This document shows, piece by piece, positions 4,330 to 33,316 of a stretch of DNA of 64,000 bases (position 1 is the stretch's first letter; each line of letters starts with the position of its first letter). Origin of the DNA: Escherichia coli. Its GTDB lineage: Bacteria > Pseudomonadota > Gammaproteobacteria > Enterobacterales > Enterobacteriaceae. Both the position numbers and the translations under genes were made by a program. Under the pieces are notes generated by a model. That model ran no database searches, was not told the origin of the DNA, and saw nothing but the letters and a program-made list of their open reading frames with translations. The stretch lies in the NCBI RefSeq assembly GCF_965641715.1, contig NZ_OZ282453.1. One strand, given 5' to 3'.

Positions 4330-6002
4330 TGGCTGCGCAAGGGTTCTTACTGATTGCCACGTTTTTACTGGTATTAATGGTGCTGGCGCGTCCTTTAGGC
4401 AGCGGGCTGGCGCGGCTGATTAATGACATTCCTCTTCCAGGTACAGCGGGCGTTGAACGTATACTCTTTCGTTTACTTGGCGTCTCTGACCATGAGATGA
4501 ACTGGAAGCAATATCTTTGTGCCATTCTCGGCCTGAACATGCTGGGGCTGGCGGTGCTGTTTTTTATGTTGCTCGGTCAGCACTATCTGCCGCTTAATCC
4601 ACAGCAGTTGCCGGGGCTGTCGTGGGATCTGGCGCTCAATACCGCCGTCAGCTTTGTCACGAATACCAACTGGCAATCTTATAGCGGTGAAACCACGTTG
4701 AGCTATTTCAGCCAGATGGCGGGCTTAACGGTGCAAAACTTTCTTTCTGCCGCCAGCGGGATTGCGGTGATTTTTGCCCTCATTCGTGCATTTACCCGCC
4801 AGAGCATGAGCACACTCGGGAATGCCTGGGTCGATCTGCTACGCATCACGTTATGGGTGCTCGTCCCTGTGGCGTTGGTGATCGCACTGTTTTTTATTCA
4901 ACAAGGTGCGCTGCAAAACTTTCTGCCCTATCAGGCAGTGAATACCGTTGAAGGAGCGCAACAGCTGTTACCAATGGGTCCGGTGGCTTCTCAGGAAGCG
5001 ATCAAGATGCTCGGTACTAACGGCGGTGGCTTCTTTAATGCCAACTCGTCGCATCCGTTTGAAAACCCAACCGCACTGACCAACTTCGTGCAGATGCTGG
5101 CGATCTTCTTGATCCCAACAGCGCTGTGCTTTGCCTTTGGTGAAGTGACGGGCGATCGCCGCCAGGGGCGCATGTTGCTGTGGGCGATGTCAGTGATTTT
5201 TGTCATCTGCGTAGGCGTGGTGATGTGGGCAGAAGTTCAGGGTAATCCTCATCTGCTGGCGCTCGGCGCAGACAGCAGCATCAATATGGAAGGTAAAGAG
5301 AGCCGTTTCGGCGTGCTGGTCAGTAGCCTGTTTGCGGTCGTGACTACGGCGGCGTCCTGTGGCGCGGTGATTGCGATGCATGATTCGTTTACCGCTCTCG
5401 GTGGCATGGTGCCGATGTGGCTGATGCAAATTGGTGAAGTGGTATTCGGCGGTGTCGGTTCTGGTCTTTACGGCATGATGCTGTTTGTCCTGCTGGCGGT
5501 GTTTATTGCCGGGCTGATGATTGGTCGTACACCGGAATATCTGGGTAAAAAAATCGACGTACGTGAGATGAAACTGACTGCACTGGCGATTCTGGTCACC
5601 CCGACGCTGGTGCTGATGGGCGCGGCGCTGGCAATGATGACCGACGCCGGACGTAGCGCCATGCTCAACCCTGGCCCGCATGGTTTTAGCGAAGTGCTGT
5701 ACGCCGTGTCATCCGCCGCTAACAACAACGGCAGCGCCTTTGCCGGATTAAGCGCCAACTCTCCGTTCTGGAACTGTTTACTGGCGTTCTGCATGTTTGT
5801 CGGTCGCTTCGGAGTGATTATCCCGGTGATGGCAATTGCCGGTTCGCTGGTAAGTAAAAAGAGCCAACCCGCCAGCTCCGGCACGCTGCCAACGCACGGC
5901 CCGCTGTTTGTTGGCCTGTTAATCGGCACCGTGTTGCTGGTTGGCGCACTGACCTTTATCCCTGCCCTGGCGCTTGGTCCGGTGGCGGAATATCTCTCCT
6001 GA
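4329..6002 (+). CDS. kdpA: K+-transporting ATPase subunit A (557 aa)
   Basis: Internal Met [16 protein letters not shown] matches the KdpA N-terminus; the track ORF carries a 48-codon upstream extension. Confidence 0.95.
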
Positions 6003-6024: not shown

Positions 6025-8073
6025 ATGAGTCGTAAACAACTGGCGCTATTCGAACCAACACTTGTCGTTCAGGCGCTGAAAGAAGCGGTGAAAAAATTAA
6101 ACCCGCAGGCGCAATGGCGCAATCCGGTGATGTTTATCGTCTGGATCGGCAGTCTGCTGACCACCTGTATTAGCATCGCGATGGCAAGCGGCGCGATGCC
6201 TGGCAATGCGCTGTTTAGCGTGGCCATTAGCGGCTGGCTGTGGGTCACCGTACTGTTCGCTAATTTCGCCGAGGCGCTGGCAGAAGGCCGCAGTAAAGCG
6301 CAGGCCAACAGCCTGAAAGGGGTGAAAAAAACTGCTTTTGCTCGCAAGCTGCGCGAACCGAAATATGGCGCTGTGGCAGACAAAGTTCCTGCCGATCAAC
6401 TGCGTAAAGGTGACATCGTGCTGGTAGAAGCTGGCGATATTATCCCCTGCGATGGTGAAGTCATTGAAGGCGGCGCATCGGTCGATGAAAGCGCCATCAC
6501 CGGGGAATCGGCACCGGTGATCCGTGAATCCGGTGGCGATTTTGCCTCCGTCACTGGCGGCACGCGTATTCTTTCTGACTGGCTGGTGATTGAGTGTAGC
6601 GTTAACCCCGGCGAGACATTTCTGGATCGGATGATCGCGATGGTGGAAGGCGCACAGCGACGTAAAACGCCGAACGAGATTGCCCTGACCATCCTGCTGA
6701 TTGCCCTGACTATCGTCTTTTTACTGGCAACCGCCACGCTGTGGCCGTTTTCCGCGTGGGGCGGTAATGCAGTCAGTGTAACGGTACTGGTGGCGCTGCT
6801 GGTCTGTCTGATCCCAACCACTATTGGCGGCCTGTTGTCAGCGATCGGCGTCGCCGGGATGAGTCGGATGCTGGGCGCGAATGTGATTGCCACCAGCGGA
6901 CGTGCAGTTGAAGCGGCGGGTGACGTTGACGTCCTGCTGCTGGATAAAACCGGCACCATCACACTCGGTAACCGTCAGGCGTCGGAGTTTATCCCCGCGC
7001 AGGGCGTGGATGAAAAAACGCTGGCTGACGCCGCACAACTGGCTTCGCTGGCTGATGAAACGCCGGAAGGCCGCAGTATTGTGATCCTCGCCAAGCAGCG
7101 TTTTAACCTGCGCGAGCGCGATGTGCAGTCGCTCCATGCCACCTTTGTACCGTTTACTGCGCAAAGCCGGATGAGCGGGATCAACATCGACAACCGCATG
7201 ATCCGTAAAGGTTCTGTCGATGCCATTCGCCGCCATGTTGAGGCTAACGGTGGTCACTTCCCTGCCGATGTTAATCAAAAAGTCGATCAGGTTGCGCGTC
7301 AGGGGGCCACGCCGCTGGTGGTGGTGGAAGGTTCTCGTGTGCTGGGCGTTATTGCGCTGAAAGATATCGTTAAAGGCGGCATTAAAGAACGCTTCGCGCA
7401 ACTGCGCCAAATGGGCATTAAAACGGTGATGATTACCGGCGATAACCGTCTGACTGCCGCCGCCATTGCCGCGGAAGCGGGTGTCGATGATTTTCTCGCC
7501 GAAGCGACACCAGAGGCCAAGCTGGCATTGATCCGTCAGTATCAGGCGGAAGGCCGTTTGGTGGCGATGACCGGCGATGGCACCAACGATGCTCCGGCGC
7601 TGGCGCAAGCAGATGTCGCGGTGGCGATGAACTCTGGTACTCAGGCGGCGAAAGAAGCGGGCAATATGGTGGATCTCGACTCTAACCCGACCAAGTTGAT
7701 CGAGGTGGTGCATATTGGCAAACAGATGCTGATGACCCGTGGCTCGCTGACCACCTTCAGCATTGCCAACGATGTGGCGAAATACTTCGCCATTATTCCG
7801 GCGGCGTTCGCGGCAACGTATCCGCAGTTAAATGCGCTGAACATCATGCGCCTGCATTCGCCCGACTCCGCCATTCTCAGTGCGGTGATTTTCAACGCCT
7901 TGATTATCGTCTTTTTGATTCCCCTGGCGTTAAAAGGCGTGAGTTATAAACCGCTTACCGCTTCTGCCATGTTGCGCCGTAACTTATGGATTTACGGTCT
8001 GGGTGGGCTGCTGGTGCCGTTTATTGGTATCAAAGTCATTGATTTACTGCTGACCGTTTGCGGTCTGGTGTGA
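6025..8073 (+). CDS. kdpB: K+-transporting P-type ATPase catalytic subunit B (682 aa)
   Basis: P-type ATPase motifs DKTGTIT and TGDGTNDAP present in the ORF. Confidence 0.96.
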
Positions 8074-18431: not shown

Positions 18432-19838
18432 TCAGAAGATGGTGAATGGTGCGATTACCATAAATTTCACGTCGCGCTCATCCTGGAAGATGTTACCGTA
18501 ACCGCCACCCCAGCTTGGGATGTCGGAGTGGTTGTCGTATTCGGTGAAGTGCAGTTTGAACATCGTGCCTTTGGCGCGACCGTCCTGAATGGTGTAGACC
18601 GCATCCAGGCTGTATGCAGACTCTTCAATAGTCCGGTTTTTGTCGTAGTACGCATCCGGATTGCTCTGCCAAGTCGCAGGTTTAGCATCCCATGCGTAAA
18701 CGTAGGAAGCGCCGATGGCGAAGCCTGGAAGATTCCAGTTTTTCAGGTCATACATCGCACCGAAGAAGACCGCTTTTTCGCCGTTGGCGTTGAAGTCAGA
18801 ACGGTTATCCCACCAGATATCCAGGCGGCCGTTGGAAGAAGCGTAGGTTGGAGTCATACGTTGCAGGAAGTATCCCTGCTGACCTTCAGCCTTAACCCAG
18901 GTGCCTTCGAGGCGCAAATCCACTACGTCAGCCGCCCGGTAACCAAAGGTCAACGCTTGCAGCCAGGCGGTGCCGTCATAAAGATCGTTGACGCTGCGAT
19001 CGTCAACTTTATCGCGCGTACCGTAGAACTGGTAGCTGGTGGTTAACGGGCTACCGGCGATATCAAATTTGTAGCTGGCTTTGGCAAAGTATTGATCGAT
19101 ATACCCTTCCGCCTGACCAAATGCCGCTTCCAGTACGAAGTTATTTTTGAAGTCGTATTTCGCACCAAGGGAGTGCAGATAATCAACTTTGGTGGTTTTA
19201 TCGTTCTGATAAAACTCATCCATTTCCAGATGCCACGGTGCTTTGTATTCGTTGGTCCACATGTAGGAGAAACTCAACGCACCAGCATCGCCGTAATCAA
19301 AATTCGCTCCGGCTTCCGCACCCTGATAAGTACCCGGCATAAAGCTCCAGTGAGGCGCTAACAGCGTCTGACCGGTTGGCTGAATATAACCTGCCCTCGC
19401 CCAAACCGGACCGTATTTAAATTTGGCCGCAGCTTTATACAGGCTTATACCGCTTTTGTCGCCGGACCAGTCTTCGTCATAGGCTTTATTACTTTTTGAA
19501 AACGCGATTTCGTTCGGGTGAGAGCTGTCGCCGTTTTCCGCCATTTCAATCGCCGTAAACGCAGCAATATCAAGGCCGAACATATCAGCAGCATAACCGG
19601 ACTGAAAATCGAGGTTGGCATTCCAGGTGGAGTGAGAAAGGTTGGTTTTGTATTTGTCGCCGTCGGTAACATCTTTACGGTCGCGTTCACGCTGCCAGTA
19701 ATATATACCGCCGGTTAAGGTTGAATCGTCGATGAATCCTTCGGCGCGAGCCTCCGGCATTGCCATAAAGCCCGACATTGCTGTAACACCGGCGATAGCC
19801 AGCGCCAGCGTACTACGTTTGCCACTAAACGTACGCAT
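18432..19838 (-). CDS. chiP: chitooligosaccharide outer-membrane porin ChiP (468 aa)
   Basis: Signal peptide, OprD-like beta-barrel, C-terminal aromatic residue (ends ...APFTIF). Confidence 0.93.
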
Positions 19839-20219
19839 GGGTTAATCCTCTTTGACGTATAAATTGCTGCACCAAAGGTGAACAGCGAAAAAAAATAAAA
19901 ATTAAAAAAGTAGCGTTGAGAAAAGTCTCGCTGACTACAGGAACAGACTATTTTTCGCGACGCGAATTATCAATCTCTTTCTGTAACCAGAATGTAAGAA
20001 CATGAGCAACCGCACATATTTTGATGATTTTTGTTACAAGGCTTAAGTTTGCGGTTGAAAGGCTTGCAGAAGAATAAAAGCGTGAATTTCCAGCAAGATG
20101 AAAGCGGTTACATTTTATTTAATTATGTTTTGTTATTTTAAATTTATTTTATGGATAAATTGCGAAGCGGAATTAATTCGCGAAGAAAAGCAGAAAAAAC
20201 GCCGCTGAACGCGGCGTTT

Positions 20220-20410
20220 TGGATTGTTTGCATATTTCTTGCCGGATGCGGCGTGAACGCCTTATCCGGCCTACAAAAGCACGCAAACTCAATATATTGC
20301 AGAGATCATGTAGGCCTGATAAGCGTAGCGCATCAGGCAATTTAGCGTTTGAAACTGTTTGTCTGTTCCTTGCCGGATGCGACGTAAACGCCCCATCCGG
20401 CATAGCGAAA
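20220..20410. repeat. BIME/REP cluster (at least three REP units) between glnS and the chiP promoter
   Basis: gccggatgcggcgtgaacgccttatccggcctac, gtaggcctgataagcgtagcgcatcaggca and gccggatgcgacgtaaacgccccatccggca. Confidence 0.75.
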
Positions 20411-20417
20411 CTTAAAA

Positions 20418-22082
20418 TTACTCGCCAACTTTCGCCCAGGTATCACGCAGCCCAACGGTGCGGTTAAATACCGGTTTTTCGGCAGTGGAATGGCGGCTAT
20501 CGAGGCAGAAGTAACCTTCACGCTCAAACTGGAATGCTTTACCCGCAACCGCATCTTTCAGCGACGGTTCAGCAAAGCCCTGTTTGATCACCAGCGATTC
20601 CGGGTTAATCACCGACAGGAAATCATCCGCAGCACCAGGGTTCGGCACACTGAACAGACGGTCATACAAACGGATTTCAACCGGCAGCGCATGTGCCGCG
20701 CTCACCCAGTGAATAACACCTTTGACTTTACGACCATCTGCCGGATCTTTACTTAAGGTATCGGCGTCATAAGTACAGAAGATGGTGGTGATATTACCTT
20801 CGGCATCTTTCTCGACGCGTTCTGCCTTAATCACATAAGCATTACGCAGACGCACTTCTTTACCGAGCACCAGACGTTTGTACTGCTTGTTAGCTTCTTC
20901 GCGGAAATCGGCGCGATCGATCCAAATCTCACCGCTAAACGGCACCTGACGGCTCCCCATTTCCGGTTTGTTCGGATGGTTCGGCATGGTGACCATTTCG
21001 CCTTCGCCCTGATAGTTTTCGATAACCAGTTTCACCGGATCGATAACCGCCATTGCGCGCGGCGCATTTTCGTTGAGATCTTCACGGATGCAGGATTCCA
21101 GCGACGCCATCTCAATGGTGTTGTCCTGCTTGGTCACGCCGATGCGTTTGCAGAACTCACGAATAGAAGCCGCAGTGTAACCACGACGACGCAGACCGGA
21201 AATGGTCGGCATTCGCGGGTCATCCCAGCCTTCAACGTGCTTGTCGGTCACCAGCAGGTTCAGCTTACGCTTGGACATCACAGTGTATTCCAGATTCAGG
21301 CGCGAGAATTCGTACTGGCGCGGGTGAACAGGAATGGTGATGTTGTCCAGCACCCAGTCGTACAGGCGACGGTTGTCCTGGAACTCAAGCGTACACAGAG
21401 AGTGCGTAATACCTTCCAGCGCATCGCTGATGCAATGGGTGAAGTCGTACATCGGGTAGATGCACCACTTGTTGCCAGTCTGGTGGTGTTCAGCAAATTT
21501 AATGCGGTACAGCACCGGATCGCGCATTACGATAAATGGCGACGCCATGTCGATTTTCGCACGCAGGCAGGCTTTACCTTCTTCAAAACCGCCGGTACGC
21601 ATTTTCTCGAACAGCGCCAGGTTCTCTTCAACGCTACGGTCGCGGTACGGGCTGTTTTTACCAGGCTGCGTCAGGGTGCCGCGGTATTCGCGGATCTGTT
21701 CCGGCGTCAGTTCATCAACGTACGCCAGGCCTTTATTGATCAGTTCGATCGCATAGGCGTGGAGCTGATCAAAATAATCGGAGGAGTAACGGACGTTACC
21801 AGACCAGTGAAAACCTAACCACTCAACGTCGTTTTTGATCGAATCGACATACTCGATATCTTCTTTTACCGGGTTAGTGTCGTCGAAACGCAGGTTGCAC
21901 TGGCCTTTATAGTCCTGGGCGATCCCGAAGTTCAGGCAGATAGATTTCGCATGGCCAATATGCAGATAGCCATTCGGCTCCGGCGGGAAACGGGTGTGTA
22001 CTGTGGTGTGCTTACCACTGGCCAGATCTTCATCGATGATCTGACGAATAAAGTTAGTCGGGCGGGCTTCTGCCTCACTCAT
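20418..22082 (-). CDS. glnS: glutaminyl-tRNA synthetase (554 aa)
   Basis: [17 protein letters not shown]...; class I HIGH (HIGH) and KMSKS-like (VMSKR) motifs. Confidence 0.97.
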
Positions 22083-22301
22083 CGTGGATTCCTCAAAGCG
22101 TAAACAACGTATAACGGCGTATGATCTTATAAGCGGGACAGGCTGACAACTGTTAGTTAGCGAAAAAGTGGTTTTGCGTAAGATATTGGGGCGTTTTCTG
22201 CGCTACAGCCAGCAGATCCTCGCGCTGGAGACGTAAGGCCAAACGTCGCCAGCCTGACGCGTTTATTAAATTTCCGGATGAGCTGGCCGCAGAGTCGTAG
22301 A

Positions 22302-23063
22302 TTAATCCGCTATGATTAAACGCGTCGACAAGGACGCCAGCGTTTTGCGCGTCTGCCCATCAAGCTGATTATCCGTAATAATCTCTGTCAGTTCATTAAG
22401 ATGCGCGATATTAAACAGCGACCATGAACCGTATTTTGAGCTGTCAGCCAGGAGAATTTTGCGCGAAGCATGCGCGATAAGATCGCGTTTTAGTGCGGCT
22501 TTCTCTTCCGTGGGTGCTGTAATACCCTTTTCAAGATCCCAGCTGTTACAGCTTAAAAATGCCACGTCCGGCCAGGTATTTTGCAGCATTTTACGACCAT
22601 GTTCGCCAATGCAGGACTGGCTGGAGTCGTCGATACGTCCGCCGATAATCGTCACTTCAATCTGCTTGAATTCAGCCAAAAAAAGCGCGATATGCAGGTC
22701 GCTGGTGATCACGCGAAGCGGTAAATGGGTAATCTGCCGCGCAAGTTCAATCATTGTCGTACCGGCATCAAGGACGACGGAATCCCCCGCTTTGACCATT
22801 GACGCCGCTGCGCTGGCGATGGCATGTTTTTCCGCCAGGCTGCGCTGCATTTTCTCATGGGTAGTCGGTTGGGTAGGAATAAACCGGTTGAGGGTCACAC
22901 CGCCGTGTGTACGGCTGATAACACCCTGCTCATCGAGTTTTATCAGGTCTCGACGAATCGTGGCCGGCGACGCATTGGTTACCGCCACCAGCTCATCAAC
23001 GGTGACCAGATTATGGCTTTTCAGGTAATCCATGATCTGCTCTAACCGGTTATATCCCTTCAT
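22302..23063 (-). CDS. DeoR/GlpR-family transcriptional regulator (253 aa)
   Basis: N-terminal HTH ([30 protein letters not shown]) and C-terminal DeoR-type sugar-phosphate-binding domain; last gene of a three-gene leftward operon. Confidence 0.8.
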
Positions 23064-23064
23064 T

Positions 23065-24051
23065 TTATTCTCGCGAAATCTGCATTGCTAACTGGATGGA
23101 AACTGCCATGCTCTCAGACTTGGCTTTTCCTGTCCAGGCAATATCAAATGCGGTGCCGTGGTCGGCAGAAGTACGAATAAATGGCAACCCGGCGGTGATA
23201 TTCACCCCATCATAAAATCCAAGCAGTTTTAAAGGGATATGCCCCTGATCGTGGTACATAGCCACCACCATATCGAATAGCCCTTCATGGCACTGCATGA
23301 ACACGGTATCTGGCGGGCACGGGCCAGTAACATCAATATCTTCGGCCTGCATTGCTTCAATCGCAGGTGCGATAATCTCGATTTCCTCAGTGCCGAATAA
23401 ACCGTGTTCCCCTGCATGTGGATTTACACCCGCCACGGCAATACGCGGACGCTCAATACCGACACGTTTCAGGAAGTGGTTCGCAACTCGAATAACCGTT
23501 TTGACCCTTTCACCGTTCAATGTATCCAGGAATTTACGCAGTGAGATGTGAGTCGAAATATGGATAACCTTGAGCTTATCGGTATAGAGCACCATCGCGT
23601 ACTCTTTGCTGCCGGTAAGATGGGCCAGCAATTCCGTATGGCCAGGATAGTTATGCCCGCCAAGATGCAGCGCTTCTTTATTCAACGGCGCAGTGGCTAT
23701 GGCTTTCACCTCGCCTGATAAGGCCAGGGCCGTTGCACGTTTGATACAGCGATACGCTAAATCGCCTGCCGCAGCCTGTACCACTCCGGGTGTCAGCGCA
23801 TCGGGGTTAGCCAGCGGCTCATCCATCACGTTAATCACGCCGGGAGCAAAGTGGGCGTCGCACACCTTTTGAATGACGCGTAACTCTGTCTGCGGCGTGA
23901 TATTCATCGCCATAATACGTCGTAACGTGCGCACACAGCCCACCACCACCACCGGGGCACCAGCAAGCCCGGCTTCGCTCAGGGATTTAATAATGATCTC
24001 CGGGCCAATACCCGCCGGATCGCCCATCGTTACCGCAATAATATTATTCAC
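23065..24051 (-). CDS. PdxA-family NAD-dependent dehydrogenase, PdxA2-like (328 aa)
   Basis: Whole-length resemblance to 4-hydroxythreonine-4-phosphate dehydrogenase ([23 protein letters not shown]); starts 8 nt inside the upstream kinase gene. Confidence 0.75.
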
Positions 24052-25282
24052 TACGCTTCTCCTCGATAAAATTCAGAACCTGATGCAACGTGGTCTCATC
24101 GCCAAACCCACCGGCTTTCGTCATCACCGAACGGGACCAGACGCCGCCCAGAAAGTGACCGTATGGAACGCACTGCGCCACCTTCCCCGTAATACGAAAC
24201 CCGGTCGCACCTAACGCACTGGCTGTTGCCATTGCGACATCGCCACCAGAGAGATAAAGGGCATCAGGGGTGACACGAAGCAGAACTTGCCGGGTAAGTT
24301 CGCCAAGAAACCGGCAAATTTTTTCCCCAAGCGCAGCGCGACTCATCTGCCAACGCTGGCAAAGGGTGTCGATATGGTGCCTTGCTTCAGAATCGGTACA
24401 GGTGTGGACAATGCAGTGGTCCCCTTTCTGTAAGGCCTGCACAATACGCGCGTCATAGCCCCTGGCGTTGCCTGCCAGAATGTGTTCAACATCGACGTAT
24501 ATCTGTGTGATACGTGAGTGTGAATGCAGTGTGGCGATCTGCCGTTGAGCGATTTCGCTCATTGAACCAATAATGGCCAGCACGGTGGGTGGCGGCATAA
24601 TCGCCGAGCGCCGGGCAACGGCATCACAAATACCAGCGGAGCCGACCAGCAGCAGCGGTTGTTTAGCCTGCATCACAGCGGCAGCGATGCAATCCAGGTC
24701 GCTGTCCGTCTGCGCATCCATCACCCCAATCCACGGTTGCTCACGAGACAAATGGCTGAGCTCAGAAACTGTAACGGGCTGGCATGGAATGGCCGTCTGC
24801 AACCGAATGATGTCCGCAATTCGTGCGCTCATTACCGGGGTTTTTGGATCGCTGGCAAACTCGGTTTCCGTTAGCCGCACGCCGTTTACCCGACACTCAC
24901 CGTCCACCGTGGTCCTTCCCACCTGGGGAAATGCGGGGGCAACCACTGCGCCCGTTATGCCGCATGCCTGCATCAGGGCTTCAATTTCTGCGCCGATATT
25001 CCCTCGCAGCGTGGAATCTATCTTTTTAATCATGAGCGGCGGGTTATTCGCCAGAGGGAGATGACTCATCAGCGAGGTCATTTTCATCGCGGCCTGCTTA
25101 GGATCCATCGCCCGACTGTCGCTATTAATCACCCATACGCTTGCATCACCGTGATAAGGCGTTGCAAAGGCCACATCAACCGTATGTCCCACCTGCGCCA
25201 GGCTTACTCCTGCGTCGTTGGCCCCTGTGAAATCATCGGCAACGACGAGAATGCTCGGCTTAGTGATTCCCTTTTCCATCAT
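24044..25282 (-). CDS. four-carbon acid-sugar kinase family protein, DUF1537/OtnK-DtnK-like (about 412 aa)
   Basis: N-terminal hallmark ILVVADDFTGANDAGV; start set at the ATGATG doublet preceded by GGAG (track ORF runs to a TTG at 25321). Confidence 0.7.
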   Translation of the reverse strand: MMEKGITKPSILVVADDFTGANDAGVSLAQVGHTVDVAFATPYHGDASVWVINSDSRAMDPKQAAMKMTSLMSHLPLANNPPLMIKKIDSTLRGNIGAEIEALMQACGITGAVVAPAFPQVGRTTVDGECRVNGVRLTETEFASDPKTPVMSARIADIIRLQTAIPCQPVTVSELSHLSREQPWIGVMDAQTDSDLDCIAAAVMQAKQPLLLVGSAGICDAVARRSAIMPPPTVLAIIGSMSEIAQRQIATLHSHSRITQIYVDVEHILAGNARGYDARIVQALQKGDHCIVHTCTDSEARHHIDTLCQRWQMSRAALGEKICRFLGELTRQVLLRVTPDALYLSGGDVAMATASALGATGFRITGKVAQCVPYGHFLGGVWSRSVMTKAGGFGDETTLHQVLNFIEEKRSE

Positions 25283-25448
25283 CACTCCAGGTTGTTTTAT
25301 GATGACAATGATTATATTCAATCACGATTGATTAAATGTGAGCAAGTTCAAGTTATTAATCACTCGAATAAATTATAAAATTAGGCCATGTTACGTAGAC
25401 AACGGTATTTTGAATGATTGATTTCAATCACGAGAAGAGAGGTTATTT
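25283..25448. promoter_or_regulatory. divergent promoter/operator region of the island
   Basis: AT-rich 166-bp spacer between divergent operons containing TCAATCAC-GATTGATT (25318-25333) and its permuted inverted-repeat form GATTGATT-TCAATCAC (25416-25432). Confidence 0.5.
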
Positions 25449-26606
25449 GTGGTAATTATCAATAGCACGATACTGAGCGGCGCAGGCGCTATCCCTTCCC
25501 TGACGTCGCTCTTACCCGGCGTCAGAAAATTGCTGCTGGTCACAGACAGCAATATTGCGCAGCTTAACGGAGTGCAGCAGATTCGCGCCTTACTGGAAAA
25601 GCACTGCCCGCAGGTGAGCGTTATCGATAATGTGCCTGCAGAGCCTACGCATCATGATGTGCGCCAGCAAATGGCGACCCTCGGCAACGCGTCGTTTGAT
25701 GTAGTAGTGGGCGTCGGCGGCGGCAGCGTGCTGGATGTCGCAAAACTGTTGTCGGTGCTTTGTCACCCCGATTCACCGGGGCTGGATGCGCTGCTTGCCG
25801 GTGAAAAACCGACGCAGCGGGTGCAATCATGGTTGATTCCTACAACCGCCGGTACCGGCTCAGAAGCCACGCCAAATGCGATTCTGGCGATCCCTGAACA
25901 AAGCACGAAGGTGGGTATTATTTCTCCGGTGCTGCTACCGGATTATGTGGCACTTTTCCCCGAGCTGACCACCAGCATGCCCGCACATATTGCAGCGTCT
26001 ACGGGCATTGATGCGCTTTGTCACTTACTGGAGTGTTTTACCGCGACCGTGGCAAATCCGGTCAGCGATAACGCGGCGCTAACCGGGTTAAGTAAGCTTT
26101 TCCGGCATATTCAACCCGCCGTGAACGATCCTCAGGATCTGCGCGCAAAACTGGAAATGCTGTGGGCGTCTTACTATGGCGGCGTAGCGATAACCCATGC
26201 GGGCACGCACCTGGTCCATGCGCTCTCCTACCCGTTAGGCGGCAAATATCACCTGCCGCACGGTGTGGCGAATGCCATCTTGCTGGCACCGTGCATGGCG
26301 GTTGTTCGCCCCTGGGCGGTCGAGAAATTTGCCCAGGTCTGGGATTGCATTCCCGATGCGGATACATCCTTGAGCGCGGAAGAGAAATCTCACGCTCTGG
26401 TGGCCTGGCTACAGGCATTAGTCAATCAACTCAAGCTGCCCAACAATCTCGCGGATCTTGGCGTACCGCCAGATGATATTACGTCTCTTAGCGCGGCGGC
26501 ACTGAACGTGAAGCGCCTGATGAACAATTCCCCCTGCCAACTGAATCAGCGGGACGTGCAGGCCATTTACCAAACGCTGTTTCCGCAACATCAATTTAAG
26601 GAGTAA
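25449..26606 (+). CDS. iron-containing (group III) alcohol dehydrogenase (385 aa, GTG start)
   Basis: GGGS NAD(P)-binding motif (VVGVGGGSVLDVAKL) and His-rich metal site (HALSYPLGGKYHLPHG); RBS agagagg upstream. Confidence 0.75.
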   Translation: MVIINSTILSGAGAIPSLTSLLPGVRKLLLVTDSNIAQLNGVQQIRALLEKHCPQVSVIDNVPAEPTHHDVRQQMATLGNASFDVVVGVGGGSVLDVAKLLSVLCHPDSPGLDALLAGEKPTQRVQSWLIPTTAGTGSEATPNAILAIPEQSTKVGIISPVLLPDYVALFPELTTSMPAHIAASTGIDALCHLLECFTATVANPVSDNAALTGLSKLFRHIQPAVNDPQDLRAKLEMLWASYYGGVAITHAGTHLVHALSYPLGGKYHLPHGVANAILLAPCMAVVRPWAVEKFAQVWDCIPDADTSLSAEEKSHALVAWLQALVNQLKLPNNLADLGVPPDDITSLSAAALNVKRLMNNSPCQLNQRDVQAIYQTLFPQHQFKE

Positions 26607-26609
26607 ATC

Positions 26610-27497
26610 ATGCCAAAAACCATTGAAGGTGTATTAACCGCCATCGTCACCCCGTTTACCGCGACCGGCGTCCTGAATCTCCCGGCGTTAAAAGTGCAGG
26701 TTAATCGCCAACTGGAAGCCGGTAACGCGATTTTTTGCGGCGGCACCAACGGCGAGTTTTTTGTGTTGAACGAACAGGAGAAGCTCAGCGTTACGCAAAC
26801 CTGCGTGGATGAAGTGGCTGGCCGCGCACCGGTCGTGGCGCACATTGGTGAGATCTCGACGCGCGAAACCATTCGTCTGGGTCAGCAGATTGAAAAACTG
26901 GGCGTTGATGCGGTATCGGTCATTACCCCGTACTTTGTACCGCTAAAACAGGAAGAGCTGATTGCCCATTACACCGCAATTGCCGACGCACTAAGCATTC
27001 CCATGTTTCTCTATAACATCCCGGCCCGCACCGGCAATACGATTCAGCCGGAAACCGCGCGCGCTCTGGCGTCGCATCCCAATATCATTGGGATTAAAGA
27101 CAGCGCCGGAAGCTACGAAAGCCTGAAGGGTTTTCTCGATGCTGTGCGCAACATTGACGGCTTTAATGTGCTCAACGGCCCGGATTCGCTGATCCATAAA
27201 GGGTTTGTCGAGGGGTGTTCAGCCTGTATTTCCGGGCTCGCCAACGTCGCGCCGCGAGAAATCAATGCCATCTGGTCTCGCTTCCATGCCGGTGATATTG
27301 AAGGATCGTATCAGGCACAGGAGAGTGTGACTGGCCTGCGTACCGATCTTTATAAAGTAGCATTCTCCCCAGCTGCGGTGAAAAAAGCGTTGCAGCTTAT
27401 GGGGCATGATGTTGGTGATAGCCGCTACGCGGTTAATTTCACGCCTGAACAGATCAGCGAGATTCAACAAATTATTCGTCATTATCACATTAATTAA
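26610..27497 (+). CDS. DapA/NanA-family Schiff-base aldolase/lyase (295 aa)
   Basis: GVLTAIVTPF N-terminal motif, GGTNGEF, and Schiff-base lysine context IIGIKDSAG; starts 3 nt after the ADH stop. Confidence 0.75.
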   Translation: MPKTIEGVLTAIVTPFTATGVLNLPALKVQVNRQLEAGNAIFCGGTNGEFFVLNEQEKLSVTQTCVDEVAGRAPVVAHIGEISTRETIRLGQQIEKLGVDAVSVITPYFVPLKQEELIAHYTAIADALSIPMFLYNIPARTGNTIQPETARALASHPNIIGIKDSAGSYESLKGFLDAVRNIDGFNVLNGPDSLIHKGFVEGCSACISGLANVAPREINAIWSRFHAGDIEGSYQAQESVTGLRTDLYKVAFSPAAVKKALQLMGHDVGDSRYAVNFTPEQISEIQQIIRHYHIN

Positions 27498-27556
27498 ATT
27501 AACTCTATTATCCAGCCCGCTATAACGTATAGATAAAGAGAATAAAGGATTACCCC

Positions 27557-28315
27557 ATGTTTTTGTGGTTTATGCAGCCAGATATCTGGCTCACTTTAAT
27601 TACCCTCACCTTTCTGGAAATTATTCTCGGGGTGGATAATATTATTTTTCTTTCACTGGTGGTGGCAAAACTTCCGTTATCACAACAAAATATGGCGCGT
27701 AAACTGGGTTTAAGCTGCGCGATGATTATGCGGATATTATTGCTGATATCCATTGCGTGGCTTTCACATATTACCCAGCCGCTTTTTACCGTGCTGGCGC
27801 TGGAGATTTCGTTCCGCACGTTGATTCTACTCGGGGGCGGGCTGTTCCTGATTTATAAAGCGATACAGGAGATACGCGAAGAGTTGTCGCCCGCGCAGGA
27901 AGACGCGCATGGCAGCGGGTCGCGGCAGCTGTCGCTGTGCGGTGCTATCGTACAGATAATGCTGCTGGATATTGTGTTCAGCCTGGACTCGGTGATCACC
28001 GCCGTCGGCCTTTCTCAGCATATATTTATTATGATTGCTGCCGTCATGATTGCCGTTGGCATCATGATGTTTGCGGCGAAAACCATTGGTGACTTCGTGA
28101 ACGCGACGCCATCGATAAAAATACTGGCGTTAACCTTTTTATTATTTGTCGGCGTATTGTTGGTTGCCGATAGCCTCAATATTCATATTGCCAAAGAGTA
28201 TCTCTACTTCGCGATATTTTTCTCATTAAGCGTGGAGACACTCAATATTTTCCGTGAAAGAAGACATAAAAAAGTTTCGACATCGATCGAAACGCATGAA
28301 TCGAACTCGCATTAA
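27557..28315 (+). CDS. TerC-family integral membrane protein (252 aa)
   Basis: About seven hydrophobic helices with two DN/DS-type motifs (LGVDNIIFLSL, FSLDSVITAVG) typical of TerC/YgdQ-like proteins. Confidence 0.55.
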   Translation: MFLWFMQPDIWLTLITLTFLEIILGVDNIIFLSLVVAKLPLSQQNMARKLGLSCAMIMRILLLISIAWLSHITQPLFTVLALEISFRTLILLGGGLFLIYKAIQEIREELSPAQEDAHGSGSRQLSLCGAIVQIMLLDIVFSLDSVITAVGLSQHIFIMIAAVMIAVGIMMFAAKTIGDFVNATPSIKILALTFLLFVGVLLVADSLNIHIAKEYLYFAIFFSLSVETLNIFRERRHKKVSTSIETHESNSH

Positions 28316-28350
28316 TAAATCTATTACCGACTTTAAGATGGAGTCTAACT

Positions 28351-29520
28351 ATGTCTGTAGCTCTTATTCGTGACGGCGTCATCCGTCCGTCCGAAAATGA
28401 TTCGCATGTGCTTACCGCCATGCTGCCCTCGTCCTGCCCGCAAAACCACGCGGCGAATATTCTGCCTTTGCCGGATGGCGCGTTAATGTGCGTCTGGTTT
28501 GCGGGAACGCAGGAAGGTATTGCCGATATTTCCGTCTGGGGATCGCGGCTGCCCGCTGGCGGAACGCAGTGGAGCGATGCGGTCAAACTGTCCCACGATG
28601 ACACGCGTTCAGAGCAGAACCCGGTACTGTTTCTCGCACCGGATAACGTGCTGTGGCTGCTATGGACCGCACAAATATCCGGTAATCAGGACACCGCCAT
28701 CGTCCGCTACCGTAAGTCAGACGACCTCGGACAAACCTGGGGCGAGATTGCCACGCTGCTCGATAAACCCGGCACGTTCATTCGCCAGCCGATCACGGTG
28801 CTTGATAACGGCAACTGGCTGCTGCCCGTCTTTTATTGCCGTACCCAACCCGGTGAAAAATGGGTCGGCAATGATGATATCAGCGCAGTGAAAATTTCCG
28901 CTGACGGTGGTCACTCATGGCGCGATGTCGAGGTGCCGCAAAGTCTCGGCTGCGTTCATATGAATATCACAATGCTGCACGACGGTACGTTGGCTGCTCT
29001 CTTTCGCAGCCGTTGGGCAGACAACATCTATATCAGCCATTCTGCGGACCACGGCGAGAGCTGGTCGGTGCCGCAAGCAACCGAACTGCCCAACAACAAT
29101 TCGTCTATTCAGGTGACGACGCTTGCCAGCGGTGAGCTGGCGCTGGTGTACAACGCAATGAGTGCGGCAGGCGCAGTAGAACGTCGCGCGTCGCTGTATG
29201 ACGAAATCGACGATGGCGACGACAGTCGCAAAGAACCCACAGCCGTTGGACGCTCCGCTTTCTGGGGTGCCCCGCGCGCGCCGATGACGGTAGCGATTTC
29301 TGCCGATGGCGGGAAAAGCTGGCCGTGGCGGCGCAATCTCGATGAAGGCGATGGCTACTGCATGACCAACAATTCGCTGGAAAAGCTAAATCGCGAGTTC
29401 TCCTACCTCAGTATCAAACAAAGCCCGGACGGTACGCTGCATATCGCTTACACCTGGTGGCGTCAGGCCATCAAGTACGTGCGCATCTCCCCCGAGTGGG
29501 TTAAGGGGCAGGCATTATGA
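28351..29520 (+). CDS. BNR/Asp-box repeat sialidase-like protein, predicted cytoplasmic (389 aa)
   Basis: Four S-x-D-x-G-x-[TS]-W Asp-boxes (SDDLGQTW, SADGGHSW, SADHGESW, SADGGKSW); N-terminal IRP (FRIP-like); no signal peptide. Confidence 0.75.
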   Translation: MSVALIRDGVIRPSENDSHVLTAMLPSSCPQNHAANILPLPDGALMCVWFAGTQEGIADISVWGSRLPAGGTQWSDAVKLSHDDTRSEQNPVLFLAPDNVLWLLWTAQISGNQDTAIVRYRKSDDLGQTWGEIATLLDKPGTFIRQPITVLDNGNWLLPVFYCRTQPGEKWVGNDDISAVKISADGGHSWRDVEVPQSLGCVHMNITMLHDGTLAALFRSRWADNIYISHSADHGESWSVPQATELPNNNSSIQVTTLASGELALVYNAMSAAGAVERRASLYDEIDDGDDSRKEPTAVGRSAFWGAPRAPMTVAISADGGKSWPWRRNLDEGDGYCMTNNSLEKLNREFSYLSIKQSPDGTLHIAYTWWRQAIKYVRISPEWVKGQAL

Positions 29521-29987
29521 TTATCGGGAATCTCAACCATTTGTCACAGGCGGGGCTTCCCGCTGGCGTGAAAAATATTCTGCTGCGCCCGGAATGTTCG
29601 TTACGGGCGTTATCCGCCAGAGAGGACGGTCGCTGGCAACTGGAAGGATGCCGGTGGTTCTGCACGCTGGGCCTTTCAGACACGCAGCCCGCCGATCTCC
29701 GGCATACGGAGTATCACCATCTGTGGGCCGATATTCAGGTGGTGATTGCCGGTTGTGAGGGCATTAATGCGGGGACGCGGCCCGTAGCGCAGGAAAGCGA
29801 TGAAGAACGTAAGCCCGATCTGTTTATCGCCCCATCCCCTGAAAACAGTGTCGCAATCACCTTACACCCCGGTGATTTCGCCGTCTTTATGCCAGAAGAA
29901 CCCCATCAGGCGCTGTGCGCGGTTGGCGCGGCCACGTCAGTACGTAAAGCGGTCTTTAAGGTACCGCGCGACATGCTGGAAGCCTAA
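29517..29987 (+). CDS. YhcH/YjgK/YiaL (DUF386) family protein (156 aa)
   Basis: Size and N-terminal pattern (MIIGNLNHLSQAGLP...) typical of the DUF386 family found in sialic-acid and beta-galactoside operons; ATGA overlap with the BNR gene. Confidence 0.65.
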   Translation: MIIGNLNHLSQAGLPAGVKNILLRPECSLRALSAREDGRWQLEGCRWFCTLGLSDTQPADLRHTEYHHLWADIQVVIAGCEGINAGTRPVAQESDEERKPDLFIAPSPENSVAITLHPGDFAVFMPEEPHQALCAVGAATSVRKAVFKVPRDMLEA

Positions 29988-30000
29988 AAGGAGAGAAAAA

Positions 30001-31281
30001 ATGACAATGGAAATGATCCTGGCATTAGGAATACTGGTCCTGATGATCGTGCTGATCATGTCGGACAAAATGCCCTTTGGCGCACCGCCACTGCTTGCGT
30101 GTTTATTGCTGGTTGTCTCGGGGCTGTCGACGGTTCAACAGGCTTTTGCCGGATTCGTCAATCCAAGCGTGGTGATGATTGCAGGGTTTATGGTGGTGAT
30201 GGCTGCGCTACAAAAAACCCGGCTTATCAGCAACGTTAAATCTGCGATGATAAGCCTGGTCAATAAAGGCAGTTACCGCAGTTATGGGCTGTTGTTAGTC
30301 ATCGTTATGCTGGGCGCCAGTCTTGCCGGCACCGGCGCGACGGGTTATTACGTGCTGATTCTGTCTCTGGTATCCACCATTCCGTACAGTAAAAAGCTAC
30401 CAACATCGAAATTGATGATGCCACTGGGATTTGCCACCAACCATCCGCTTCTTCCTATCAATCTCGCGCTTCTCTTTGGCGTCACGGCGACCGTACTCGA
30501 AACAGCCGGTTTTCATCAGGAGATTTCGATGGGGCGCTTTGCGCTGGTGAATCTCGTCATGTCAGCGGCTTTTCTGGCGTGGAGTCTGATTGCCTACCGT
30601 TTTCTTCCGGATCATCCCATTGCGGATGCTTCCGAGGATGCGCTGGCCGCACGCGAAGAAACGTTTAACGCCCTTCCTGCCTGGAAAGAGTATTGCACCA
30701 TCGCCGCATTCGCCGTCAGCGTTATCGGCATGATGCTGATGAATATGCTGGGTAATATCGCCTTCGTTATTCCAGGCCTTGCGGGTGCGTTTGTTCTGAT
30801 GATCGATGTACTGGACTTTAAAGAAGTTCGCGATCATATGGGGGCACCGGTCATTTTAATGATGGCGGGGGTGATCGGTGTGGCTGATGCGCTGGCTGGC
30901 ACCGGCTTTACGGCAATGGTAGGCGATGCCGTTGCAGGTGTGCTCGGGTCTGGCGTCTCACCGTTTGTATTTATTGTCGCCTTTGCTTTACTTACCAGTA
31001 CCTGCGCCACCTTCACGGGTTCGAATATGGGGTCAGTCTATATTTTTGCCCCCATCGCCATTGCCGCCTGTACTAGCCTTGGGCTTAACCCGACCGCTGC
31101 CGCGATTGCGGTGGTGATTTCTGGCTGGAATGGCGGCTATATGCCTATTGACGGAATGCCAGCCATGATCCTCGGAATGGGGAAATACAAACTTCCCGAA
31201 TTCTGGGTGTTCTCTGTACCAATGTATCTCATCCGCATTCTGGCGCTTTGTGCAGGCGCTGTTTTTATCTTCCCAATGTAA
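30001..31281 (+). CDS. anion permease of the ion-transporter superfamily, GntP/CitMHS-like (426 aa)
   Basis: ATG at 30001 preceded by aaaggagag; 10-12 hydrophobic segments with two-repeat architecture; the track ORF (29800) carries a spurious upstream extension. Confidence 0.6.
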   Translation: MTMEMILALGILVLMIVLIMSDKMPFGAPPLLACLLLVVSGLSTVQQAFAGFVNPSVVMIAGFMVVMAALQKTRLISNVKSAMISLVNKGSYRSYGLLLVIVMLGASLAGTGATGYYVLILSLVSTIPYSKKLPTSKLMMPLGFATNHPLLPINLALLFGVTATVLETAGFHQEISMGRFALVNLVMSAAFLAWSLIAYRFLPDHPIADASEDALAAREETFNALPAWKEYCTIAAFAVSVIGMMLMNMLGNIAFVIPGLAGAFVLMIDVLDFKEVRDHMGAPVILMMAGVIGVADALAGTGFTAMVGDAVAGVLGSGVSPFVFIVAFALLTSTCATFTGSNMGSVYIFAPIAIAACTSLGLNPTAAAIAVVISGWNGGYMPIDGMPAMILGMGKYKLPEFWVFSVPMYLIRILALCAGAVFIFPM

Positions 31282-31290
31282 TCTCAGACA

Positions 31291-31326
31291 AAAAAAGCGG
31301 CAGAGAAGATCCCTGCCGCTTTTTAT
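31291..31326. terminator. bidirectional intrinsic terminator at the island/nagE junction
   Basis: aaaaaagcggcagagaagatccctgccgcttttt: 7-bp GC stem flanked by an A-run and a T-run. Confidence 0.7.
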
Positions 31327-31329
31327 TGT

Positions 31330-31362
31330 TGAATGCGACGCTGCCGTGTCGCATCAGGCATG
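31330..31362. repeat. REP-like palindromic fragment
   Basis: gaatgcgacgctgccgtgtcgcatcaggcatg. Confidence 0.45.
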
Positions 31363-31369
31363 AAGCAGA

Positions 31370-33316
31370 TTACTTTTTGATTTCATACAGCGGTGTTTGA
31401 CCCGCCACAACATGGCCCTGAGCTTTAATGATCAAGCCACTGAAATCGTCGATATTACTGCAAACCACTGGGCTAATCATCGAGCGGGCGTTAGCGTTCA
31501 GGTAATCCAGATCCATTTCCAGAATCGGTTGTCCTGCGCTTACCTGCGCGCCCTCTTCCACCAGACGTTTAAAGCCTTTACCTTCCAGCGCTACGGTATC
31601 GATACCCATATGGACGACGATCTCCGCGCCTTTTTCGGTTTCCAGGCAGAACGCGTGGTTGGTGTTGAAGATTTTCACGATTGTCCCTGCGGCTGGTGAT
31701 ACGACGATTTTATCTGTCGGTTTCACCGCCACACCGTCACCCACTGCTTTGCTGGCGAATGCTTCGTCAGGAACCTGATCCAGTGCCACGACATCACCGG
31801 TAATCGGCGATACCAGCTCCGCGATAGATACCGCGTTTGGTACAGCCTGCGGTTTTGCTACAGGAGCGGCAGTTGCCGGAGTTGCTTCAGCAGAGGCAGC
31901 TGCTACCGGGCCACGGGCAACGACTTTCTTCATCGCATCGCCGATGGATTCTGCTTTCGCGCCAACAATCACCTGAATAGTCTGTTTGTTCAGTTTTACT
32001 ACACCAGAAGCACCCAGACGTTTACACATCGTATCGTTAACGCGGGCAGAGTCAGCCACTGTAAGGCGCAGACGGGTGATACAGGCGTCAATTGCTTTCA
32101 GGTTGTCAGTGCCGCCAACCGCAGCAATATAGTTGGTCGCCAGTTGATTGAGGCCTTCTTCAGTGTTGCTGTTGGCTTCTTCAGTAACGATCTCGTCTTC
32201 TTTATCTTCACGACCCGGCGTTTTCAGGTTGAACATGCGGATAACCAAACTGAACACCACGAAGTAGATAGCGAAGAAGACAACACCCATCACCAGCAGC
32301 ATCCAGACGTTCTGGCTGGCGGCCGGCAGGTTATACATCAACGCGTAGTCGATAGCCCCCGCAGAGAAAGAGAAGCCGGCATGGATACCCAGCAGCGTTG
32401 CCACAAACAGGCTGATACCGGTCAGCAGTGCGTGCAGGAGGTACAGCAGCGGTGCAAGGAACATGAACAGGAATTCCAGCGGCTCAGTCACACCGGTCAG
32501 GAACGCAGTAACAGCAACAGAAAGCAGCATCCCGCCAACCATCGGACGACGCTCTTTCGGTGCTGCGAAGTACATCGCCAGCGCCGCCCCCGGCAGACCG
32601 AACATCATGATCGGGAAGAAGCCGGACATGAACATCCCCGCGGTGCCGTCACCGGCATAGAAGCGGTTGATATCACCGTGGAAAACCGTACCCGCCGCGT
32701 TGGTGAATTCACCAATCTGGAACCAGGCGATGGTGTTCAGCACCTGATGCAGACCGGTTGGGATCAGCAGACGGTTGATGAAACCAAAGATACCGGAACC
32801 CAGCGCGCCCGCAGAAACGATCCACTCGCCGCCTGCATGGATAGCGTGCTGTACCGGCGGCCAGACGTAACCAAAAATGGCCGCCAGCACCAGACAGAAG
32901 AAGCCGGTGGCGATCGGCACAAAGCGTTTGCCGCCGAAGAAGCTCAGGAAGTCCGGCAGTTTAATATCGGACCAACGGTTATAGGCTGCGCCACCAACCA
33001 GACCGGTAATGATACCCGCCAGTACACCCATGTTAATTTCTGGGTTGATGGTCACCATCGCTTTGGTTAACACAAAGTAACCTACCGCACCCGCCAGCGC
33101 CGCCGCACCTGCGCTGTCTTTCGACCAGCTGGATGCCACACCGATGGCGAAGATTAATGCGAGGTTATCAAAAATCGCACCGCCCGCCTGGGCAATAAAC
33201 GCAACGTTAAGTAAATCTGGCTGACCGAATCGCAGCAACAGTGCCGCCACCGGCAGCACCGCGATAGGGAGCTGTAACGCCCTACCGAGTCGCTGGAAAA
33301 AACCTAAAATATTCAT
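31370..33316 (-). CDS. nagE: PTS N-acetylglucosamine-specific EIICBA component (648 aa)
   Basis: MNILGFFQRLGRALQLPIAVLP...; EIIC membrane domain, EIIB cysteine region, EIIA C-terminus. Confidence 0.96.
   Translation of the reverse strand: MNILGFFQRLGRALQLPIAVLPVAALLLRFGQPDLLNVAFIAQAGGAIFDNLALIFAIGVASSWSKDSAGAAALAGAVGYFVLTKAMVTINPEINMGVLAGIITGLVGGAAYNRWSDIKLPDFLSFFGGKRFVPIATGFFCLVLAAIFGYVWPPVQHAIHAGGEWIVSAGALGSGIFGFINRLLIPTGLHQVLNTIAWFQIGEFTNAAGTVFHGDINRFYAGDGTAGMFMSGFFPIMMFGLPGAALAMYFAAPKERRPMVGGMLLSVAVTAFLTGVTEPLEFLFMFLAPLLYLLHALLTGISLFVATLLGIHAGFSFSAGAIDYALMYNLPAASQNVWMLLVMGVVFFAIYFVVFSLVIRMFNLKTPGREDKEDEIVTEEANSNTEEGLNQLATNYIAAVGGTDNLKAIDACITRLRLTVADSARVNDTMCKRLGASGVVKLNKQTIQVIVGAKAESIGDAMKKVVARGPVAAASAEATPATAAPVAKPQAVPNAVSIAELVSPITGDVVALDQVPDEAFASKAVGDGVAVKPTDKIVVSPAAGTIVKIFNTNHAFCLETEKGAEIVVHMGIDTVALEGKGFKRLVEEGAQVSAGQPILEMDLDYLNANARSMISPVVCSNIDDFSGLIIKAQGHVVAGQTPLYEIKK

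Follow-up and report, generated by a model that had tools for sequence, protein, structure and literature searches.

Within the DeoR/GlpR family of bacterial regulators, DeoR binds DNA cooperatively, forms DNA loops and responds to a sugar-phosphate inducer, while GlpR represses a catabolic pathway and is induced by the product of that pathway's kinase. In the glp regulon (glpTQ-glpACB), multiple operators are interleaved with CRP sites in a divergent region, and looping has been proposed. A further family member, YgbI of the ygbJKLMN cluster in K-12, is linked to a gene cluster with a four-carbon acid-sugar kinase of the DUF1537 family. In the gal (OE-OI) and lac (O1-O3) systems, operators about ten turns apart bracket a promoter together with a CRP site, one operator being located upstream and the other early in the transcribed region. 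Here, a divergent control region is compared with these systems which was found in a 64-kb stretch of Escherichia coli DNA (contig NZ_OZ282453.1; the whole stretch is referred to as the window). It is the spacer at 25283-25448 between a leftward operon, encoding D-threonate kinase (dtnK), D-threonate 4-phosphate dehydrogenase (pdxA2) and a DeoR-family regulator, and a rightward operon starting with the gene of an iron-containing alcohol dehydrogenase (ADH). The repeats in this spacer are probably operators of the locally encoded DeoR-family repressor which flank a shared CRP site, with autoregulation and probable looping.

Conserved palindromes in the divergent spacer

As read directly from the window sequence, the spacer contains TCAATCACGATTGATT at 25318-25333 and GATTGATTTCAATCAC at 25416-25431. 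These are the two permuted repeats recognized in the original prediction, which had placed the end of the second one base too far (25432). The spacer length of 166 bp given there holds if dtnK starts at the ATG at 25282, while the RefSeq-equivalent ATG at 25279 yields 169 bp; the assigned distances to the start codons are confirmed as well, with 35 bp to the dtnK start and 17 bp to the GTG of the ADH gene at 25449.

The 166-bp spacer has an A+T content of 69%, and its repeats were compared with 50,000 dinucleotide-preserving shuffles of the same sequence. Swapped adjacent 8-mers in non-overlapping copies were obtained in 2 of the 50,000 shuffles and two non-overlapping palindromes of the type 5-N6-5 with an identical arm in 4, while 376 contained a non-overlapping direct repeat of 11 nt or longer. 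A chance origin of the repeat arrangement is ruled out by these tests. Searching for the motif beyond the spacer, as had been suggested, gave a divided answer for the 64-kb window: taken singly, the 8-mers are unremarkable (5 matches vs. 2.5 expected for one, 4 vs. 3.0 for the other), whereas the exact pattern TGATT-N6-AATCA occurs only twice in 64 kb, both times inside the spacer. Each of the 1,047 E. coli genomes with the surrounding island contains a single copy of the spacer itself, on which basis an origin from a mobile element or repeat family was rejected.

For phylogenetic footprinting, one genome per species was scanned, resulting in 52 loci that encode a relative of the regulator (66-99% identity). 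The core arrangement of ADH and aldolase genes facing DtnK, PdxA2 and DeoR genes is syntenic in 46 of these 52 loci, and almost all syntenic loci have a spacer of 154-177 bp. Block conservation was expressed as mean identity to the window base in aligned spacers of 21 genus-level representatives. The following blocks stand out:

25309-25324, no strand: site 1a, 16-bp palindrome TGATTATATTCAATCA; mean identity 0.99, invariant in all Enterobacteriaceae loci
25328-25334, no strand: site 1b, a third half-site, TTGATTA, abutting the CRP-like box; mean identity 0.93
25334-25355, no strand: CRP-like box AAATGTGAGCAAGTTCAAGTTA, TGTGA-N6-TCAAG, centre at 25344.5; best match to the CRP consensus in the 64-kb window (16 of 22 positions)
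25337-25352, no strand: core of the CRP-like box, TGTGAGCAAGTTCAAG; mean identity 0.91
25367-25385, plus strand: Box B, AATAAATTATAAAATTAGG (AATAAATTATAAA(A)TTAG), which holds TATAAA at 25374-25379; mean identity 0.80
25415-25430, no strand: site 2, 16-bp palindrome TGATTGATTTCAATCA; mean identity 0.82 (right arm 0.96, left arm 0.83)

In comparison, mean identity is 0.36-0.54 for the DNA between the blocks, and 0.40 and 0.70 for the initial codons of the genes on either side.

According to the footprint over the 46 syntenic loci, the conserved unit is a 16-bp palindrome, TGATT-N6-AATCA, present in the same register at 25309-25324 and 25415-25430, and the footprints of both sites are kept across about 45 species. 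The consensus reads TGATTrAWnTyAATCA. Variants of site 2 among genera include TGATTGAATTCAATCA, TGATTAAATTTAATCA, TGAGCGAAATCAATCA and TGATTGAAATTAATCA, the first of which is the form found in E. coli and a perfect palindrome. Throughout these genera, site 2 retains positions 1-3 as TGA and positions 12-16 as AATCA. Each of the 23 distinct variants has the outer arms TGA...TCA unchanged, and differences are seen at inner positions. Symmetric covariation was sought at operator positions 6 and 11 and not found, as G/C, A/T and the mixed pairs G/T and A/C all occur.

The relation between the two sites was assessed with a log-odds matrix whose training set, 19 distinct forms of site 2, came from other genera and excluded the window along with its close relatives. 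In the 64-kb scan, this matrix assigned 24.8-25.9 bits to site 2 and 22.7 bits to site 1a, followed by a next match of 14.5 bits; maxima in shuffled windows averaged 14.0 bits, with a highest value of 19.4 bits. As site 1a is recovered with a matrix derived from site 2 alone, the 16-mer at 25309-25324 is identified as the counterpart of site 2, in agreement with a 21-nt direct repeat (AATGATTATATTCAATCACGA / AATGATTGATTTCAATCACGA). Of 47 syntenic loci, 45 have both sites at 20 bits or more.

This changes the structure initially proposed, i.e., two permuted repeats of which one is everted and the other inverted, as the true counterpart of site 2 lies 9 bp to the left of the first repeat. That repeat (25318-25333) consists of the right arm of site 1a plus the third half-site, so that its permuted look is a by-product of what appears to be a left operator with three half-sites. 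The everted pair forms a good palindrome in the window and in E. coli (TCAATCATGATTGA), but no good inverted repeat in Citrobacter, Klebsiella and others (TCAATCACATTTGATT or TCAATCACAATTGATT). Permuted geometry was consequently rejected as the functional unit, given that the everted pair is not an inverted repeat in many genera while 25309-25324 is invariant. A fourth half-site, TTAATCAC at 25356-25363, was also dismissed; it is present in the window and not conserved among other genera. The CRP-like box and two predicted -10 elements described below, from which the sites derive their mechanistic meaning, had been missing from the original prediction.

CRP-like box, predicted promoter geometry and spacing of the sites

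The CRP-like box is fixed at a distance of 28 bp from site 1a in all 44 loci compared. Its six-base spacer (GCAAGn) is near-invariant from Escherichia to Vibrio in all syntenic loci. A search of the spacer for a promoter with both hexamers found none, in keeping with activator-dependent promoters. Two conserved hexamers of the -10 type flank the centre of the box (25344.5): TATAAA on the plus strand (25374-25379) begins 29.5 bp and TATAAT on the minus strand (25316-25311, read as ATTATA at 25311-25316 inside site 1a) 28.5 bp away from it. The former is the predicted -10 element of the ADH promoter and the latter that of the dtnK promoter. With the usual placement of the hexamer at -12 to -7, transcription would start at about 25386 rightward (ADH) and about 25304 leftward (dtnK), and the box would be centred at about -41.5 and -40.5, respectively. 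This fits class II geometry, provided that TATAAA and the minus-strand TATAAT are indeed the -10 hexamers. A leftward promoter with the minus-strand TATAAT of Box B (25377-25372) as its -10 element was considered and rejected: its -35 region would fall into unconserved DNA and the CRP site would lie downstream of the start.

On these predicted promoters, site 1a would span -5 to -20 of the dtnK promoter and site 2 about +30 to +45 of the ADH transcript, and sites 1a, 1b and 2 would all occupy repressor positions. The distance between the two palindromes is constrained as well. From start to start, site 1a and site 2 are 106 bp apart in the window and 103-106 bp apart (standard deviation 1.0) in 44 enterobacterial loci, while the flanking distances are looser (standard deviation 3.7 between dtnK and site 1a and 3.1 between site 2 and the ADH start). 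The inter-site distance is held even though the stretch separating Box B from site 2 shows no sequence conservation. About ten helical turns are what a protein bridge between the operators would require, and it is only from the 103-106 bp constraint that we infer looping.

Could the DeoR-family protein bind to these sites and activate one or both promoters instead? FucR is an activating member of the family, neither promoter has a recognizable -35 hexamer so that some activator is needed, and, relative to the predicted ADH promoter, the left cluster would span about -77 to -52, which is a workable position for an activator. Yet the CRP-like box, in class II position for both promoters, already explains the missing -35 hexamers; site 1a covers the predicted dtnK -10 element and site 2 lies downstream of the predicted ADH start, both being repressor positions, and most characterized DeoR/GlpR members are repressors. 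Activation by the regulator is therefore considered unlikely.

The same geometry bears on the idea that the blocks are promoter elements only (-10 hexamers, UP-like AT tracts and a CRP site), whose likeness to each other is incidental and which include no dedicated operator. Site 1a does harbour a perfect minus-strand TATAAT, and Box B is conserved though it is no repeat. Site 2, in contrast, is located at least 36 bp downstream of the only plausible rightward -10 element, lacks promoter-like hexamers and still has a right arm conserved at 0.96. Moreover, the score of 22.7 bits for site 1a was obtained with a matrix trained on site 2, invariant outer arms around varying inner positions are the pattern of a dimer-binding site, and a locally encoded regulator without an operator would be unusual. 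Promoter elements as the sole cause of the conservation are thus a distinctly improbable explanation.

Even less credit is given to the palindromes acting as hairpins in leader RNA, i.e., in mRNA stability or attenuation, instead of as DNA sites. Site 2 could form a 6-bp stem in the predicted ADH leader, but this leader folds no better than shuffled sequences (z = 0.23), and natural site-2 variants break the pairing without compensation (TGAGCGAAATCAATCA retains 5 of 7 pairs and TGACAAAATGCAATCA 3 of 7). In addition, site 1a lies upstream of the predicted dtnK start, and a search of Rfam returned no match (best E = 0.75). With Rfam empty, a fold z-score of 0.23 and arm changes that are not compensatory, an RNA element was discarded.

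In the preferred reading, that of repressor operators around a CRP site, the DeoR-family protein would bind the 16-bp palindrome at two places about ten helical turns apart. The left operator, with its three half-sites, would overlap the predicted -10 element of dtnK-pdxA2-deoR, and bound repressor would shut this operon; as its own synthesis would be switched off thereby, negative autoregulation would result. The right operator would be located shortly downstream of the ADH start, at about +30 to +45 within the transcribed region. Together, the two operators would bracket the single CRP site, from which one CRP dimer could activate both -35-less promoters at high cAMP, and the CRP site, along with the ADH promoter, would be looped out by a repressor oligomer that spans both operators. 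Judging from other DeoR/GlpR regulators, the inducer is probably the kinase product, 4-phospho-D-threonate or a close relative.

In a more elaborate version of this switch, one CRP dimer would serve two divergent class II promoters, the starts of their -10 hexamers being 58 bp apart, and a DeoR loop of about 105 bp between the three-half-site and the two-half-site operator would control both simultaneously, with a choice of binding register. The shared middle half-site would permit two mutually exclusive registers, inverted at 25309-25324 or everted at 25320-25333. In the everted register, the protein would abut the CRP box and compete with the activator, giving register-dependent anti-activation. 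This version is speculative, and we think it rather doubtful as a whole; if true, it would represent a compact, symmetric switch of one activator, one loop and two operons on an island enriched in B2-type extraintestinal E. coli.

The regulator, its motif in other genomes and the island

The regulator gene ends the leftward operon (22302-23063, minus strand), as originally predicted. Its product comprises an N-terminal HTH_DeoR domain (PF08220, residues 6-59, E = 6.4e-19) and a C-terminal DeoRC sugar-phosphate sensor domain (PF00455, residues 77-232, E = 9.8e-48), both assigned with Pfam. The sole relative in the PDB is the C-terminal domain of E. coli DeoR (7l6l). The protein stays below all NCBIfam equivalog cut-offs of the family (AgaR, YgbI, GlpR, SrlR, UlaR, FucR and DeoR) and, on this sequence basis, is a member of an apparently uncharacterized DeoR/GlpR subfamily. 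Literature searches on the regulator, the operator and the operator sequences found no earlier description among the papers that were searchable. Across 48 orthologues, the 14-residue segment of the recognition helix is essentially invariant.

An operator-like 16-mer also occurs within the regulator gene itself. In about 30 genera, codons 40-45 (LIKLDQ, part of its own recognition helix; 22930-22945 of the window, minus strand, and 6119-6134 in the coordinates of the related loci) read TGATTAARCTCGATCA, which scores 19-22 bits with the site-2 matrix, while the window and E. coli carry the weaker TGATAAAACTCGATGA. Modal-codon use at this 16-mer is 0.78, compared with an average of 0.64 over the gene. 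The 16-mer may be an auxiliary operator inside the gene or a coincidence.

The motif co-occurs with the regulator across three families. In Vibrio litoralis, whose regulator is 67% identical, the control region reads TGATTAAACTTAATCA-ttt-TGATTA, followed by TGAGAgcaagaTCAAA and then TGATTGAAATAAATCA. Actinobacillus porcinus (66% identity) has a rearranged, one-directional operon, the promoter of which keeps TGATTAAAAATAATCA, TGATTATAAAAAATCA and TGTGAcgaagaTCACG in the same order. Site 1b is thus retained in Vibrio, while in Actinobacillus it is expanded to a full second 16-mer, TGATTATAAAAAATCA. The Actinobacillus CRP box, TGTGAcgaagaTCACG, has 9 of the 10 core positions of the CRP site TGTGA-N6-TCACA, and a TATACT hexamer follows at 29.5 bp, the same distance as in the window.

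Binding of the palindromes by an unlinked factor such as Fur or another global regulator has to be weighed against this co-occurrence. At 25298-25316 (TATGATGACAATGATTATA), overlapping the left edge of site 1a, the Fur consensus is matched at 14 of 19 positions, and the sites are AT-rich like those of many global regulators. On the other hand, the left half of this match lies in unconserved DNA (identity 0.51), the window offers 11 positions with an equal or better match to the Fur consensus, and the TGATT/AATCA arms are 6 bp apart vs. 1 bp for the TGAT/ATCA arms of a Fur box. Furthermore, the motif accompanies the regulator gene both in Vibrio and in the rearranged Actinobacillus operon, and it appears nowhere else in the 64 kb. 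An unlinked factor is hence an improbable ligand. The Fur box at 25298-25316 was itself rejected as a candidate, being half in unconserved DNA and unexceptional within the window.

Negative controls comprise three anecdotal cases, from Ralstonia, Rhizobium and Pantoea stewartii. The motif is absent from the Ralstonia enzyme cluster, whose regulator is only 34% identical, and no motif above chance was found at the Rhizobium enzyme cluster, with no DeoR gene in the region covered. A plasmid copy of the locus in Pantoea stewartii (pDSJ10; positions 3948-4450 of the locus) has lost the regulator gene and most of dtnK; site 1a and the CRP box are intact there, and site 2 has decayed to TGAAGAATTTCAGTCA (12.5 bits).

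Three of these loci yielded further observations. Upstream of its one-directional operon, the Ralstonia solanacearum megaplasmid carries different palindromes at positions 1730-1905 of the locus (GATCGAATCGATC, ATCAAAATTTGAT and TTGATCGTTTCAATCA), which may be operators of the distant DeoR paralogue encoded there (34% identical). The gene order of this operon is dapA-adh-(766-aa gene)-symporter-hydrolase-DeoR, where the 766-aa gene is possibly a kinase-dehydrogenase fusion. In the right arm of the pDSJ10 copy, a sodium:solute symporter and an SDR gene replace those for the TerC and SLC13 proteins. At the Actinobacillus porcinus locus (1143-1400), a short frame after the operator/CRP region opens with MELLIIADDFTGANDTGVQF, a typical N-terminus of a DUF1537 kinase, and stops before a PdxA-like gene at 1397, a full DUF1537-like gene being present at 3388-4629; the short frame may be a truncated or split kinase gene.

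Several points weigh against repressor operators flanking a CRP site. Klebsiella sp. BIGb0407 and Pantoea sp. IMH are exceptions without a good site 2, and Enterobacter and Citrobacter have a degenerate left arm at site 2 (TGAGCGA). Part of the conservation of site 1a may be due to the -10 hexamer inside it and not to an operator. GCAAG in the CRP-like box is conserved beyond what CRP demands, so the box may serve another or an additional protein. The spacing in Vibrio is 92 bp, which does not correspond to integral helical turns, and both the spacing statistics and the conservation are drawn from related species that are not phylogenetically independent. Finally, the scan for further sites was limited to the 64-kb window plus about 12 kb per related locus. 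Against this background, the suggestion of a pair of operators for the operon-encoded DeoR-type regulator, with autoregulation, still appears well founded as judged by conservation, matrix scan, co-occurrence in Actinobacillus and the invariant helix, while its definition of the sites did not stand.

The spacer forms the divergent centre of a nine-gene island, which is located between glnS (20418-22082, minus strand) and nagE (31370-33316, minus strand) and comprises:

22302-23063, minus strand: DeoR/GlpR-family regulator, presumed repressor, 253 aa; last gene of the leftward operon, assigned by its Pfam domains
23065-24051, minus strand: pdxA2, D-threonate 4-phosphate dehydrogenase (NCBIfam NF002891, 681 bits vs. 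a cut-off of 583)
24044-25279, minus strand: dtnK, D-threonate kinase of the DUF1537 family (NCBIfam NF047819, 532 bits vs. a cut-off of 450)
25449-26606, plus strand: iron-containing alcohol dehydrogenase (Fe-ADH), GTG start; first rightward gene
26610-27497, plus strand: DapA/NanA-like aldolase, rightward operon
27557-28315, plus strand: TerC-family membrane protein, rightward operon
28351-29520, plus strand: sialidase-family/BNR protein, rightward operon
29517-29987, plus strand: YhcH/YjgK/YiaL protein, rightward operon
30001-31281, plus strand: SLC13 permease; last gene of the rightward operon (25449-31281)

The first leftward gene, dtnK, starts at 25279, which equals the RefSeq start, with the ATG at 25282 as an alternative. 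The leftward genes are tightly packed, dtnK and pdxA2 overlapping by 8 nt and the regulator gene starting 1 bp past the pdxA2 stop. As they overlap or abut, the regulator would be co-transcribed with the kinase, and no gap is left between the genes in which a separate regulator promoter could be accommodated.

The whole island is contained in 1,047 (about one fifth) of 5,426 complete E. coli genomes, at identities of up to 95.3%. Carriers include model B2 strains, pathogenic and probiotic-derived, such as CFT073, E2348/69, BEN2908 and a Nissle-derived SYNB strain. In BEN2908, the island has been listed as 'GR 6 nagE..glnS', an uncharacterized sugar-metabolism region, in a 2026 genome paper which does not mention its regulation (PMC12928451). 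Over the same 5,426 genomes, the island (22200-31400) of the window is at most 95.3% identical vs. 99.0% for the chiP-glnS flank (18432-22082); it is therefore a divergent allele or derives from a lineage poorly represented among complete genomes. The chiP-glnS stretch (18432-22082) has a median of 39 matching places per E. coli genome and must hold a short repeat of the dispersed kind, which may be a REP/BIME-type element located between chiP and glnS.

The operator motif, the candidate repressor and the predicted CRP dependence provide practical handles on a metabolic island that is common in B2-type E. coli. Loss of the regulator or mutation of its operators should turn the pathway on. The DeoRC domain could be used in an inducer screen and hence point to a pathway intermediate, and the matrix is usable for a regulon search in complete genomes.

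Comparison with known systems

Of the described regions, deo with its operators O1, O2 and OE resembles the spacer in several respects. Both regulators combine a DeoR-type helix-turn-helix domain with a DeoRC sensor domain. Read directly from K-12, the region upstream of deoC contains two 16-bp palindromes, TGTTAGAATTCTAACA and TGTTAGAATACTAACA, 599 bp apart, both of them bound by DeoR. The first, TGTTAGAATTCTAACA, has the same palindromic layout as TGATTGAATTCAATCA, the form of site 2 found in E. coli, and agrees with it at 12 of 16 positions. A further shared trait is the presence of several operators, here candidate ones, per control region, and a CRP-dependent promoter, predicted for the spacer, is involved in deo as well. 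Differences exist as well: the regulator described here is a distant paralogue of DeoR (84 bits vs. a cut-off of 244), and its candidate operators are about 105 bp apart vs. 599 bp. Its gene lies inside a regulated operon, two divergent operons are concerned, and the left operator has three half-sites.

GlpR is likewise a catabolic-pathway regulator of the same family, with multiple operators and a CRP site in a divergent region. However, the island's regulator reaches only 99 bits with the E. coli-type GlpR model (cut-off 331). GlpR operators are tandem half-site arrays of a different sequence, and glpR is located outside of the operons it controls.

By sequence, AgaR (173 bits) and YgbI (170 bits) are the closest named regulators, YgbI sharing 32.5% identity with the regulator (BEN2908 paper, PMC12928451). 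Both scores are nevertheless below the equivalog cut-offs (260 for AgaR and 400 for YgbI), so the regulator is neither of them. While ygbI is a separate, divergently transcribed gene, the regulator gene described here is the last one of the kinase operon.

With gal and lac, finally, the spacer shares two (here candidate) operators about ten helical turns apart around a promoter and a predicted CRP site, whereas the repressors of those systems belong to the LacI/GalR family and looping is here proposed from the spacing of 103-106 bp. Measured against all of these systems, the switch is a tidy, expected and conventional example of the DeoR/GlpR type, and its regulator a new, uncharacterized member of the family.

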